A stretch of 28,168 nt of DNA, taken from Dehalococcoidales bacterium. Its GTDB lineage: Bacteria > Chloroflexota > Dehalococcoidia > Dehalococcoidales > JAUXAE01. A program made the translations under genes and the position numbers. Below the pieces are notes generated by a model that worked only from the letters and a program-made list of their open reading frames with translations, had not been told where the DNA came from and did no database searches. Location of the stretch: the NCBI GenBank assembly GCA_030620035.1, contig JAUXAE010000001.1, forward strand, positions 1 to 28,168. The letters are read 5' to 3'. Positions within the stretch are counted from its first letter, which is position 1; each line of letters starts with the position of its first letter. Below are positions 8,378 through 11,516 of this stretch, piece by piece.

Positions 8378-9358
8378 ATGAAGGCGGCTGACGAACCCAT
8401 TGCTGTTGATAGTTTGGCCAGACTCAATGAGTATGGCCCTGATGATCTTTTTATCTGTTGTGCCGGTTTTGAGGACAGGTGCCTGGCCGCCGCCGCCAAG
8501 ATGGGCGCCAACTTCCGGGTGAGATTTAGCATAATCTTTGTTATTGAGGAGCCGCGCTACCAGAAACTGGTAGATACCAACCTCTATAAATTACAGACCC
8601 TGCTGGCGAGAAGGACAGCTGAAGGCCTCTTTGTCATCCGGTGCCAGCGGGATGACCCCATTGACGCCGTTAATCAGCTAAAAAACATCTGGAGCCGTTG
8701 CCAGCCCAAGGATGCCGAAGAGCCCTTTATCACTGTTGATATTAGCGGCTTTACCAAGGTCTACCTGCTGGGACTGCTTTACTTTCTGGTCGCCGAGTTA
8801 AATCTGGGCATTCCCCGCATAATCCATACCACGCAGACCTATTTACCAACCAGGCTGACCCAGGGTGTGGCCCAAATATCCACGGTGACCAACTTTTTTG
8901 GCGGCATATCCATTGATAAGCAGACCGTTCTGGTGCTGTTTCTGGGCTTTGAGCCGGAAAGGTCGCTCAGCGTCTGGAAACACTTTAATCCGGCCCGGAC
9001 GATTGCCCTGATAACCACGCCGCGCCAGGGCAATGTTGACTATCTTAGATACGCTGAAAAAAATAATTCCTACCTGCTGTCACAGCCTTCTGTTGAGGTT
9101 AGGAATGTGCCCGCCGACAACCCGTATGCTGTCCGCAATGTCCTTGAGACCATCTATGATGAGACCAAGGGCTTATTCAACATGGTTACCGGCCCCTTCG
9201 GCACCAAACCCCAGACGGTGGGCCTCTTTCTCTTCTGGCTGGAGCATCCCAGGGTGCAGGTGGTTTATTCCTATCCTGTTGAGTACACCAAGTCTTACCT
9301 GAAGCGAAAGACGGGGCCGACCTTGATACTGCCCCTGGCCCCGGCGGTCAGGGCTTAG
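8378..9358 (+). CDS. Uncharacterised 326-aa protein with two tandem Rossmann/CARF-like alpha-beta units
   Basis: Long ORF with its own promoter. Repeated motifs LFICCAGFEDR / LVLFLGFEPER and ITVDISGFTK / MVTGPFGTKP. The fold assignment is inference. Confidence 0.6.
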   Translation: MKAADEPIAVDSLARLNEYGPDDLFICCAGFEDRCLAAAAKMGANFRVRFSIIFVIEEPRYQKLVDTNLYKLQTLLARRTAEGLFVIRCQRDDPIDAVNQLKNIWSRCQPKDAEEPFITVDISGFTKVYLLGLLYFLVAELNLGIPRIIHTTQTYLPTRLTQGVAQISTVTNFFGGISIDKQTVLVLFLGFEPERSLSVWKHFNPARTIALITTPRQGNVDYLRYAEKNNSYLLSQPSVEVRNVPADNPYAVRNVLETIYDETKGLFNMVTGPFGTKPQTVGLFLFWLEHPRVQVVYSYPVEYTKSYLKRKTGPTLILPLAPAVRA

Positions 9359-9807
9359 CCTTCAATCCGGGACTTTAACGCCTTATATCCGGCGGCCATT
9401 ACCCGGTCGTGGTTTCGCGCCAGCAGTGGCTTGAAAAGTAGACCGGCAAGGTTCATCAGCCAGCCGGTGGTGGTTATTTCCCAGAGGAATCTGGTCCTGG
9501 TCTCATCGCCGTCTGGCGCAAGCGTCCAGAGGCCAATCCCCCGTAAATCGCCGCTGCTTTTGAGAAGCAGCCTTTTATGAGGTTCAATTTCACTTACTTC
9601 TAGAGTGAAGTTGAGGTCTCCCAGCAGTCCTTTTACGGCCGCTTCTAATAAGGTGCCCACCTTAAGGGTCTTGTCGTCGCCCCTGATTTGGCATTTCTTG
9701 AGGCCCGGCCACCATGCTGGCATGGACTCGGCGTCCTTGATTACTTCCCAGACCCTCTCGACAGGGGCCTTAAATGACCATTCCGTTACAAAGTGATATT
9801 TCAGCAT
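9355..9807 (-). CDS. SRPBCC/START-fold (polyketide cyclase/dehydrase-like) protein
   Basis: FVTEWSFKAPVERVWEVI.D....P.WWPG and G.G.WTL.....T...F.W. The ATG at 9807 is preferred to the GTG at 9849. Confidence 0.85.
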   Translation of the reverse strand: MLKYHFVTEWSFKAPVERVWEVIKDAESMPAWWPGLKKCQIRGDDKTLKVGTLLEAAVKGLLGDLNFTLEVSEIEPHKRLLLKSSGDLRGIGLWTLAPDGDETRTRFLWEITTTGWLMNLAGLLFKPLLARNHDRVMAAGYKALKSRIEG

Positions 9808-10006
9808 CTTGTTCAAGGCCGCCCTGTAACCTGGAATATAATACAGCACCCGTCTTAAATCATCAAAAAACTGGCCAGACGGTCGCTTGATACCGATGGC
9901 TTGACCTTGAGCCAGCCTGGATAAACTAATTAACTAAAGATTCACTAGACTGGTGGTTGTATGGTCGCTAGTTACCTTTGGTTGGGCAAAATAGCCTAGA
10001 GACTAC

Positions 10007-10035
10007 TTGACATTGCCTGGTGAATGGTTTATCAT
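10007..10035 (+). promoter_or_regulatory. Near-consensus sigma70 promoter for the DUF5679 gene
   Basis: TTGACA (10007-10012), 17 bp, TATCAT (10030-10035); SD AAGGAGGT at 10051-10058. Confidence 0.8.
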
Positions 10036-10065
10036 TTAGGGCAAAATCCAAAGGAGGTAGCTTGA

Positions 10066-10206
10066 ATGCAAGGATACTGCATGAAATGCCGAACCAAGAG
10101 GGAAATGAAGGACACCAGGGCCATAATCATGAAGAACGGCCGACCGGCGACTCAAGGAGTATGCTCGGTATGCGGCACCAAGATGTTCAAGATAGGCAAG
10201 GCCTAA
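10066..10206 (+). CDS. DUF5679-type small basic zinc-ribbon protein (46 aa), absent from the ORF track
   Basis: MQGYCMKCRTKREMKDTRAIIMKNGRPATQGVCSVCGTKMFKIGKA*. Two CxxC motifs, a perfect SD, its own promoter and a terminator. Confidence 0.9.
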   Translation: MQGYCMKCRTKREMKDTRAIIMKNGRPATQGVCSVCGTKMFKIGKA

Positions 10207-10234
10207 CCTATATATTATAAACTGTCTGTTGCTT

Positions 10235-10279
10235 AAAGAGGCTGGGTATTTCGTCTGTAGGGATGCCCGGCCTCTTTTT
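10235..10279 (+). terminator. Intrinsic terminator after the DUF5679 gene
   Basis: AAAGAGGCTGGGTAT pairs with ATGCCCGGCCTCTTT (15 bp, two G-U), running into TTTTT at 10275-10279. Confidence 0.75.
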
Positions 10280-10322
10280 GGGCTGGGCATTAAGCGGCGG
10301 CAACAGGGAGCTCCTATTTAGC

Positions 10323-10374
10323 CCCCTTGACAATAGTCTGTTTTGACTATACACTTGTCAAAACCTATGTCCAG
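10323..10374 (+). promoter_or_regulatory. Promoter/operator of the HTH gene (copy B)
   Basis: TTGACA (10327-10332), 17 bp, TACACT (10350-10355). Inverted repeat ATAGTC-N6-GACTAT (10333-10350) fills the spacer. ATG at 10367. Confidence 0.75.
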
Positions 10375-10732
10375 GCAGGGTATGACCATAGCCCAGGCGG
10401 CCAAGTCGCTGGGGGTATCGACCCGAACGGTAAGGCGCTATATTAAATCGGGCAAGATTGATGCCCGACTAGTCAGCGGGCCCTTTGGTGAAGAGTACCG
10501 AATCCTGGCTCTGCCCCCGGAGCTTTATCGGTACCAGCCCCTGGACAATACCCCTAGCCAGACCCCTGTCCAGGCTATGGACATCGTCAGGGAGCTTCAG
10601 GAGAGGAACCTGACCTTAGCCGCCCAGTTTGGTGCCGCCACCGAGCGTATCCGAAATCTGGAGAACCAGATAAAGCTCTTAACAGCGGCCAAACAGCCCT
10701 GGTGGCGGCGGCTTTTCTCAAGGAAGGGCTAG
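10367..10732 (+). CDS. MerR/excisionase-like HTH protein with coiled coil and C-terminal amphipathic helix (RacA-like architecture)
   Basis: MTIAQAAKSLGVSTRTVRRYIKSGKI (HTH), VRELQERNLTLAAQFGAATERIRNLENQIKLL (heptads) and KQPWWRRLFSRKG tail. Start at ATG 10367 or 10382, not 10343. Confidence 0.85.
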   Translation: MSRQGMTIAQAAKSLGVSTRTVRRYIKSGKIDARLVSGPFGEEYRILALPPELYRYQPLDNTPSQTPVQAMDIVRELQERNLTLAAQFGAATERIRNLENQIKLLTAAKQPWWRRLFSRKG

Positions 10733-11295
10733 GCGGGGCGCATCAGCTTCTGCCTTGTCCTGACATAATGGGTGAGACCCACCAGGCAGGGTAGCCCGAT
10801 GCTATAAGCCACCAGCCCTCCGGAAACCCCCAGCCACCAGGAGACCAGCGACAGGGGCAGAAATAGAACGACACTGGCCAAAACTACATTCTTGGTTTTA
10901 ATCAGAACGGCGGCGGCCATTGCCCCTAATATCAGCATCGGCTGGGTTACCAGAATCAGCAGTACGCCAATAGTGGTTGCCTCGCCGCGGCCACCCTTGA
11001 AGCCGATAAAGACGGGCCAGTTATGTCCGATAATGACGGCGGCCCCGGTAGCTAGGATGGCCAGTTGGGGGATATTGACCGCCTGGGCAACAAGAATAGC
11101 CAGTGCTCCCTTGCCGACATCAACAATGCCTACGGTAACCCCTATCCTGGCCCCCAGCTGGCGGAAGGCATTTTGGGCGCCGACATTACCGTCGCCCATT
11201 TCCCGGATGTCCCTACCCTTAACGAGGCGTCCGGCAATATAGGCGGTAGGGATGGAACCCAGTAAGTAACCCAAAATCACTATCAGGTAAAACAT
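10729..11295 (-). CDS. plsY: Glycerol-3-phosphate acyltransferase PlsY
   Basis: GYLLGSIP, DIR..GDGNVGA.N..R, DVGKG, GHNWPVF..FKGGRGEAT. True start is the ATG at 11295; the track extension runs through a tRNA. Confidence 0.93.
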   Translation of the reverse strand: MFYLIVILGYLLGSIPTAYIAGRLVKGRDIREMGDGNVGAQNAFRQLGARIGVTVGIVDVGKGALAILVAQAVNIPQLAILATGAAVIIGHNWPVFIGFKGGRGEATTIGVLLILVTQPMLILGAMAAAVLIKTKNVVLASVVLFLPLSLVSWWLGVSGGLVAYSIGLPCLVGLTHYVRTRQKLMRPA

Positions 11296-11318
11296 AGCAA
11301 TATTATGCTCTATTTTAA

Positions 11319-11403
11319 TGGTGCCGGGGGTGGGACTCGAACCCACAAGGATTTCTCCGACGGATTTTAAGTCCGTTGCGTCTGCCACTTCCGCCACCCC
11401 GGC
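11319..11403 (-). tRNA. tRNA-Leu(TAA)
   Basis: GCCGGGGTGGCGGAAGTGGCAGACGCAACGGACTTAAAATCCGTC...GGTTCGAGTCCCACCCCCGGCACCA. Long variable arm, encoded CCA. Confidence 0.97.
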
Positions 11404-11416
11404 TTTGGCAAATGAT

Positions 11417-11445
11417 ATTTTACAGCGTTTGGTGAAAGGCTTCAA
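11417..11445 (-). promoter_or_regulatory. Promoter of tRNA-Leu(TAA) (and probably plsY)
   Basis: TTGAAG (11445-11440), 17 bp, TAAAAT (11422-11417). Confidence 0.7.
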
Positions 11446-11484
11446 GTAGACAGAGGAAAAACCATTTGTTATAGAGTGGAATGG

Positions 11485-11516
11485 TGCTATAATATAACTA
11501 AACATAATATAAAGGA
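11485..11516 (+). promoter_or_regulatory. Extended -10 promoter and SD of the AT-rich gene
   Basis: TGcTATAAT (11485-11493) and AAAGGA (11511-11516). Confidence 0.6.

Follow-up and report, generated by a model that had tools for sequence, protein, structure and literature searches.

We analyzed a 28,168-nucleotide (nt) stretch of DNA from a Dehalococcoidales bacterium (GenBank assembly GCA_030620035.1, contig JAUXAE010000001.1, positions 1 to 28,168; hereafter, the window) and found that a small gene within it is a real, ordinary member of the catalogued DUF5679 family. The 46-residue, strongly basic zinc-ribbon protein that it encodes most likely binds nucleic acids. We tentatively favor a model in which it is an abundant, chaperone-like protein that binds single-stranded nucleic acid, particularly RNA; its abundance, its binding, and its strand preference are all inferred. 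Since DUF5679 is encoded in every genome sampled from the order, is preceded by near-consensus expression signals, and is fused in relatives to a cold-shock domain (CSD), an RNA recognition motif (RRM), or topoisomerase I, the family is a concrete candidate, and one that is cheap to test, for the role of a major nucleic acid binder in Dehalococcoidia. This class includes organohalide respirers used in bioremediation, as well as abundant ocean and subsurface lineages.

The protein, MQGYCMKCRTKREMKDTRAIIMKNGRPATQGVCSVCGTKMFKIGKA, contains seven lysines and four arginines versus one aspartate and one glutamate, and has CxxC motifs at residues 5-8 and 33-36. An earlier note on this DNA, made from the sequence alone, had described these same properties and proposed that the protein fits DUF5679. 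Both statements were confirmed, as PF18930 matches above its cut-off of 27 bits (Table 1), with residues 4-43 spanning model positions 1-40, the whole model. As in DUF5679, the two CxxC knuckles (C5, C8, C33, and C36) flank a K-N-G-R/K-P-A hairpin. The note also called the gene hidden and missed by open reading frame (ORF) prediction. It does fall below the 60-residue ORF-length cut-off, but public records annotate it: the exact 46-residue protein is already in NCBI, and close homologs are titled "DUF5679 domain-containing protein." The protein would probably escape detection in standard trypsin-based proteomics, since it yields only one tryptic peptide of useful length, NGRPATQGVCSVCGTK.

Homologs were plentiful. 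The homologue search returned 654, of which the best 120 listed are 76-98% identical to the query; the best derive from Dehalococcoidales, Dehalococcoidia, and Dehalogenimonas. DUF5679 was present in each of the 41 genomes sampled from the order, with 1-14 copies, and in 193 of 301 Chloroflexota genomes; it was found in none of 14 control genomes and was also absent from one third of the sampled Chloroflexota. (All tallies over 301 genomes include four unpublished genomes, G076, G199, G218, and G292, and dropping these alters no cell by more than two.) Outside Chloroflexota, proteins 72-83% identical to the query P0317 occur in metagenome-assembled genomes (MAGs) labelled, as deposited, Thermoleophilia, Eremiobacterota, Armatimonadetes, and ammonia-oxidising archaea. 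A tblastn search of 50,697 phage records gave no match. In the literature that we searched, the only mentions of DUF5679 are in domain lists for eukaryotic virus-like elements (polinton-like or virophage-like) and for an entomopoxvirus protein. Across the order, identity is 80-90%. Residues C5, K7, C8, K23, N24, G25, P27, G31, C33, C36, T38, K39, and I43 are invariant in our alignment (A3), and K23, N24, G25, and P27 of the hairpin are invariant among 47 sequences.

Expression signals are conserved along with the protein. The promoter, the Shine-Dalgarno (SD) sequence, and the gene lie where the earlier note had placed them (Table 1). In a consensus scan of window positions 9000-11500, this promoter ranked first of eight promoter-like sites, while shuffled sequences yielded 2.1 ± 1.4. 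We then compared 98 non-redundant DUF5679 loci with 497 control ORFs from the same loci. Promoters matching at least 10 of 12 positions were present at 63 of the 98 DUF5679 loci versus 46 of the 497 control upstream regions, and SD sequences of at least 6 nt at 79 of 98 versus 64 of 497. The layout that recurs in the family is nearly always a perfect TTGACA, a spacer of 17-18 nt, and a TATxxT that ends 21-39 nt before the start codon. As most family loci have a similar promoter at a like distance, we rejected a chance match as the source of the 11/12 promoter in the window. Because the promoter and SD signals are family-wide, strong monocistronic expression is well supported, and the window gene is probably very highly expressed from its own transcription unit. 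None of the listed records that contain the stretch is of RNA, and four metatranscriptome or related runs yielded only contigs from relatives and from the neighboring tRNAs. The claim of strong expression signals in the earlier note thus held up at the level of sequence.

Fusion partners and a proposed single-strand binding role

Among homologs that are 80-89% identical to the window protein are two types of fusion, CSD-DUF5679 (122 residues) and DUF5679-RRM_1 (145 residues), each represented by dozens of independent 90% clusters. The RRM fusions are known from protein clusters only; for the CSD fusion, inspection of the DNA showed both parts to lie within one ORF of a Dehalococcoidia contig (L038). 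At lower identity, homologs make up the N-terminal part of topoisomerase I proteins of ~780-835 residues that have the domain order DUF5679-Toprim-Topoisom_bac-Zn_ribbon_Top1, where DUF5679 comes on top of the usual C-terminal Zn_ribbon_Top1 repeats. This architecture was confirmed at three loci from three Chloroflexota families (G233, L028:2945-5449; G248, L029; and G177, L031). Most sampled genomes of family f57 have a single DUF5679 match, and open frames of ~773-835 residues, several of them ~780, recur there. The sole CSD gene found in the source assembly (G000:C76:5197-5358; L033:1393-1665) is truncated by the contig end and may or may not be such a fusion.

CSDs, RRMs, and the zinc ribbons of topoisomerase I bind single-stranded nucleic acid, which is the most economical common denominator of the three partners. 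Because all of them handle single-stranded nucleic acid, we rank a single-strand or RNA-binding role first. The location of one class of paralogs after infB-rbfA-truB, the nucleic-acid-binding nature of the nearest solved structures, and the existence of Cys-less homologs (all described below) also fit this role. In this model, a monocistronic, constitutively and strongly expressed gene would produce a 46-residue, highly basic type-2 zinc ribbon. Zinc would be structural, with the four invariant cysteines in two knuckles clamping a sheet of three or four strands. The protein would bind nucleic acid without sequence specificity, and the likely binding surface would be the sheet, with the conserved Y4, F41, and M/L22, together with the invariant basic hairpin tip K23-N24-G25-R26-P27. 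Its preferred ligand would be single-stranded, either RNA or the single-stranded DNA (ssDNA) exposed in transcription, and it would be abundant and would chaperone or coat nucleic acid in processes shared with cold-shock (Csp) proteins, RRM proteins, and topoisomerase I.

Such a protein would resemble the CspA family and the bacterial RRM proteins (Rbp), which are likewise small, multi-copy, monocistronic, and strongly expressed, and to both of which DUF5679 is fused in close relatives. However, the zinc ribbon is unrelated to the OB fold and to the RRM. Further, the 5′ leader of the DUF5679 gene is short, about 24 nt, while that of cspA is long.

Several observations weigh against a single-strand binding role. 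Fusions are indirect evidence for function, and DUF5679 is also fused to proteins that do not act on nucleic acids: a membrane alpha/beta-hydrolase, an FGE-sulfatase (with seven repeats), and DUF5752. The CSD fusion on L038 carries an SD-like GAGAGAGGTGA ahead of the internal DUF5679 methionine, so both fused and free products may be made. In the structure comparisons described below, every match has Z ≤ 4.3, the matches are tied, and all fall under the noise level quoted by the tool. Moreover, the top two structural neighbor families, NrdR and Cren7, bind double-stranded DNA (dsDNA).

Predicted fold, Cren7, and the distribution of HU

The AlphaFold2 model of the protein (predicted local distance difference test score [pLDDT] 89.5) has strands at residues 2-5, 10-21, 27-33, and 39-43; the K-N-G-R-P hairpin caps the long β2-β3 pair. 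With its two knuckles and contiguous three-stranded sheet, the predicted fold is a type-2 zinc ribbon. Foldseek returned no match at E < 0.4, its top rows being zinc ribbons, and neither profile nor single-sequence searches of the PDB gave a match at E ≤ 0.7. With VIA-align, the best match was the NrdR zinc ribbon (Z 4.0-4.3, root-mean-square deviation [rmsd] 3.2-3.4 Å over 42-44 residues), alongside eL42 (Z 3.6-4.1), Rpp21 (Z 3.9), SMN Tudor (Z 3.6), and four Cren7-dsDNA complexes (4r55, 5wwc, 3kxt, and 6a2i; Z 3.5-4.0, rmsd 2.6-2.9 Å over 44-45 of the 46 residues). RPB9, at Z 3.2, was on par with the other matches. The nearest solved structures (NrdR, Cren7, eL42, Rpp21, and RPB9) are nucleic-acid-binding zinc ribbons or SH3-like derivatives of these.

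The N-terminal ribbon of NrdR is, like DUF5679, a C4 ribbon of equal length, and it binds DNA. However, NrdR has an ATP-cone, is a sequence-specific repressor, lacks sequence similarity to DUF5679, and matches within the noise range. In a Vulcanimicrobiota MAG (L070:2642-3485), the gene immediately preceding nrdR encodes a DUF5679 protein; this is probably a coincidence.

The earlier note had likened the layout of the protein to that of crenarchaeal Cren7 and proposed a nucleoid-associated role. Cren7-dsDNA complexes were indeed among the best matches, but they tied with NrdR, eL42, and Rpp21 below the noise level; eL42 and RPB9, the ribosomal and polymerase ribbons, were in turn tied with the other matches. 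To calibrate these scores, we took canonical Cren7 and 47-residue zinc-bearing Cren7 (Zn-Cren7) from Thermoproteota genomes and modelled one Zn-Cren7 (pLDDT 92). The Zn-Cren7 controls scored 45-48 bits on PF11520, covering only model positions 10/20-53. The model of this true Zn-Cren7 attained just Z 5.2 on the same Cren7 chain, followed by 4.8 and 4.3 on NrdR, and its neighbor list was almost identical to that of DUF5679. Since a genuine Zn-Cren7 does little better and has nearly the same neighbors, DUF5679 lies in the same fold neighborhood as Zn-Cren7. The 47-residue Zn-Cren7 proteins (CxxC ... CxxC) are present in 1-3 copies per genome in many Thermoproteota genomes (L148-L167, G517-G709).

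At the sequence level, the likeness is limited. When 61 DUF5679 members were searched at E ≤ 10, PF11520 was absent from the 25 most frequent families. The hhalign probability against Cren7 was 5.6%, over 11 columns, for DUF5679 and 2.5% for its Cys-less homologs (described below), for which the alignment is collinear over 36 columns. We therefore rejected membership of the Cren7 family, and homology to it, as unsupported. DUF5679 may nonetheless work like Cren7. Global alignment of Zn-Cren7 with DUF5679 gave a score of 44, compared to 17 ± 8.8 for permutations of all columns but the cysteines (z 3.0; 0 of 300 permutations scored as high), and the two share knuckle spacing and the G-R hairpin. 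In a protein-language-model search with a Dehalogenimonas query (P0093), the nearest named neighbors were archaeal (Bathyarchaeota) clusters of 54-56 residues (0.77-0.80), one of which carries Cren7 on 35% of its members; we regard this as a lead only.

Cren7 and DUF5679 proteins are alike in size, predicted strand order, basic character, the G-R hairpin between two strands, and an aromatic and then a basic residue after the second knuckle, and both families have Cys-containing and Cys-less members. They differ in that DUF5679 has a hairpin shorter by one residue and, ahead of the second knuckle, a strand shorter by three, and in that Cren7 belongs to Thermoproteota while DUF5679 is mainly bacterial, from Chloroflexota. 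Cren7 and Sul7 are themselves type-2 zinc ribbons that lost their metal, and type-2 zinc ribbons and SH3-like barrels have a common nucleic-acid-binding face (Kaur, Iyer, Subramanian, and Aravind, 2018; PMC5906684).

If DUF5679 acted in this way, it would bind dsDNA through its sheet and K-N-G-R hairpin, bend and compact it, and take on part of the role of HU in Dehalococcoidia that lack HU. The distribution of HU is compatible with this model in part. To our knowledge, HU/IHF is an almost universal bacterial chromosome protein. HU/IHF (PF00216) had no match in the window protein, the source genome, or three complete relatives, and was not found in 34 of the 35 Dehalococcoidia genomes sampled; the sole HU-positive genome (G082) is one of three that lack canonical DUF5679. 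A histone fold and Alba were looked for in the source genome and relatives and not found, while YbaB/EbfC is present. Within Chloroflexota, 123 genomes have DUF5679 only, 70 have HU only, 70 have both, and 38 have neither. DUF5679 is thus present in 123 of 161 HU-negative and 70 of 140 HU-positive genomes, an odds ratio of 0.31 that is uncorrected for phylogeny. Additional Chloroflexota families without an HU match are f59, f69, f73, f79, and f81. The literature that we searched contained nothing on Dehalococcoides nucleoid proteins or HU replacement, and a Dehalococcoides complexome paper is silent on DUF5679.

Other data fit a Cren7-like role less well. HU and free-standing DUF5679 occur together in 70 genomes, and both are missing from 38. 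In the HU-negative family f60, DUF5679 too was found in none of the six genomes sampled; in the HU-negative family f79, the one examined locus (G177) has DUF5679 within TopA, and the listed members mostly have one match each. The topoisomerase I fusions, the strong monocistronic expression signals, and the several paralogs would suit a Cren7-like protein, but the closest fusions, to RNA- and ssDNA-binding CSD and RRM domains, point away from a pure dsDNA chromatin role. Of the earlier proposal, then, the fold neighborhood, the zinc-ribbon origin of Cren7, and the rarity of HU in Dehalococcoidia stand in its favor, while profile homology is lacking and the structural match is shared with several RNA-binding ribbons. 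We consider a Cren7-like nucleoid protein doubtful. It is likewise doubtful, though conceivable, that the main proteins that package chromatin or coat nucleic acids in Dehalococcoidia and other Chloroflexota that lack HU belong to DUF5679. The family would then be a bacterial, zinc-retaining counterpart of Cren7 that, as Cren7 did, gave rise to zinc-free versions, which would be the common form in zinc-poor marine lineages and a Fur/Zur-linked spare. Were DNA binding of this kind true, a second, independent zinc ribbon would have been recruited for chromatin, with its own zinc-free derivatives. Single-strand binding and a Cren7-like role are not mutually exclusive.

Cys-less homologs, paralogs, and other possible roles

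Low-scoring PF18930 matches in three Dehalococcoidia genomes proved to be Cys-less proteins of 58-64 residues that keep Y6, K-N-G-R, and V-F-R (G320, L176:3009-3188; G082, L177:2957-3148; and G399, L175:2973-3146). With hhalign, the Cys-less family matched DUF5679 with a probability of 98.1% (E 1.2e-13). The Cys-less proteins fall into 182 or more clusters that lack Pfam annotation and come mostly from marine Chloroflexi, and they look like the common form in those organisms rather than just a back-up. In G399, a Fur-family gene (PF01475, 59 bits) directly precedes the Cys-less gene. Neither the source genome nor the surroundings of Zur-ZnuABC in three relatives (G011, G013, and G091) yielded a Cys-less copy. 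Low-scoring matches in two other relatives, G002 and G007, were also considered as Cys-less paralogs and rejected as degenerate copies.

Because the Cys-less homologs retain the basic hairpin and the aromatic residues, comparison of the sequences shows that the conserved function of DUF5679 does not need zinc itself. This bears on the idea that DUF5679 is a general zinc-ribbon adaptor for protein-protein contacts, or a zinc buffer, with no role in nucleic acid metabolism. The fusions to the alpha/beta-hydrolase, FGE-sulfatase, and DUF5752 would fit such a protein, and the existence of Cys-less homologs ties the family to zinc economy. However, neither the strongly basic and invariant surface nor the repeated occurrence of CSD, RRM, and TopA partners would be explained by an adaptor or buffer, and what the Cys-less homologs conserve is not zinc binding. 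We consider this possibility very unlikely.

A pattern of Cys-containing and Cys-less members would be expected of an abundant zinc-ribbon protein, and pairs of this kind are a hallmark of zinc-ribbon ribosomal proteins. DUF5679 resembles the Zur-regulated pairs of L31, L33, L36, S14, and S18 in having Cys-less homologs of ~60 residues; one of these lies after a Fur-family gene. Unlike these pairs, DUF5679 is not a known ribosomal protein, and no Cys-less copy turned up at the Zur-ZnuABC loci of the three relatives.

The source assembly, which totals 1.04 Mb in 132 contigs and is 79% complete, contains three DUF5679 copies. The paralog on contig C79 differs from the window copy at two residues; that on C51 (G000:C51, L001:1-2931) is ~64% identical to it. 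The C51 paralog directly follows infB-rbfA-truB and precedes an inositol-1-phosphate-synthase-like gene, and the order rbfA-truB-DUF5679 was found again in 16 related loci. In E. coli, the slot after infB-rbfA-truB is occupied by rpsO. In G082, which has HU and no canonical DUF5679, a Cys-less copy fills the truB-ino1 slot that the C51 paralog holds in the source genome.

This location of one class of paralogs is among the data that would fit a small protein that assists the ribosome or RNA polymerase as a subunit or accessory factor, its ribbon docking on ribosomal RNA or on the enzyme. The Cys-containing and Cys-less forms, sequence conservation that is extreme for a free protein, and the presence of the eL42, Rpp21, and RPB9 ribbons among the structural ties would also be consistent with such a factor. 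In addition, E. coli topoisomerase I contacts RNA polymerase through its zinc ribbons. Nevertheless, a stoichiometric subunit would hardly be encoded in 1-14 copies per genome, the monocistronic DUF5679 genes lie outside ribosomal operons, and neither the 14 control genomes nor one third of the sampled Chloroflexota have the family. Among solved ribosomal and polymerase chains, the PDB searches likewise found none with a matching sequence (E ≤ 0.7). A ribosomal or polymerase factor therefore seems improbable to us, and single-strand binding remains the reading that we favor.

Transcription unit and genomic neighborhood

The features of the window gene are listed in Table 1. The terminator stem is longer than the 15 base pairs given in the earlier note. 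A 96-nt fold of the terminator region had a folding free energy (ΔG) of -39.6 kcal/mol (z -4.5), which none of 200 shuffles equalled. The 18-pair hairpin was not listed by a simple terminator scan; the paralogous C79 unit has a conserved version of its stem.

Table 1. Coordinates of the DUF5679 transcription unit in the window
Feature	Position	Strand	Details
Sigma-70-type promoter	10007..10035	+	-35 TTGACA 10007-10012, 17-nt spacer, -10 TATCAT 10030-10035; 11/12 match
Shine-Dalgarno AAGGAGGT	10051..10058	+	Ends 7 nt before ATG at 10066
Coding sequence, 46-residue DUF5679 C4 zinc ribbon	10066..10206	+	ATG 10066; stop TAA 10204-10206 included; PF18930 58.7 bits
Intrinsic terminator	10235..10279	+	18-pair hairpin 10235-10252 / 10260-10277, 7-nt loop, into TTTTT 10275-10279

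The DUF5679 gene is part of a syntenic block (window 8378-11505) that consists of a gene for a 326-residue CARF-like protein, an SRPBCC gene, the DUF5679 gene, a helix-turn-helix (HTH) coiled-coil gene, plsY, and tRNA genes. The block also occurs in a complete 1.5-Mb relative (G011; L023, G011:C1:1330000-1340000), in which SRPBCC and DUF5679 are separated by an inserted gene for a MarC-like membrane protein. Promoter-like sites are separate for each gene, and the DUF5679 gene is also followed by a terminator of its own.

Based on the position of the HTH gene, a putative DNA-membrane tether, the earlier note had suggested that the two genes form a chromosome-organisation module and had proposed their co-occurrence as a check. 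Our locus survey revealed the HTH gene downstream of DUF5679 in 14 loci. However, a homolog of the HTH gene was found in only 15 of the 41 genomes of the order, all of which carry DUF5679; it adjoins the DUF5679 gene in four genomes and is 1.3 kb away in a fifth. Given this difference in distribution, the separate promoter-like sites and terminator, and the synteny of the block, the module was not supported: the adjacency of DUF5679 and the HTH gene is conserved gene order within a larger block and gives no evidence of a functional module.

Comparison of window positions 9990-10280 with the C79 copy (L002:1395-1735, minus strand) revealed near identity from the -10 region through the coding sequence to the terminator stem, with unrelated flanks. 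This suggests that an entire transcription unit, a mini-cassette, was recently duplicated or underwent gene conversion.

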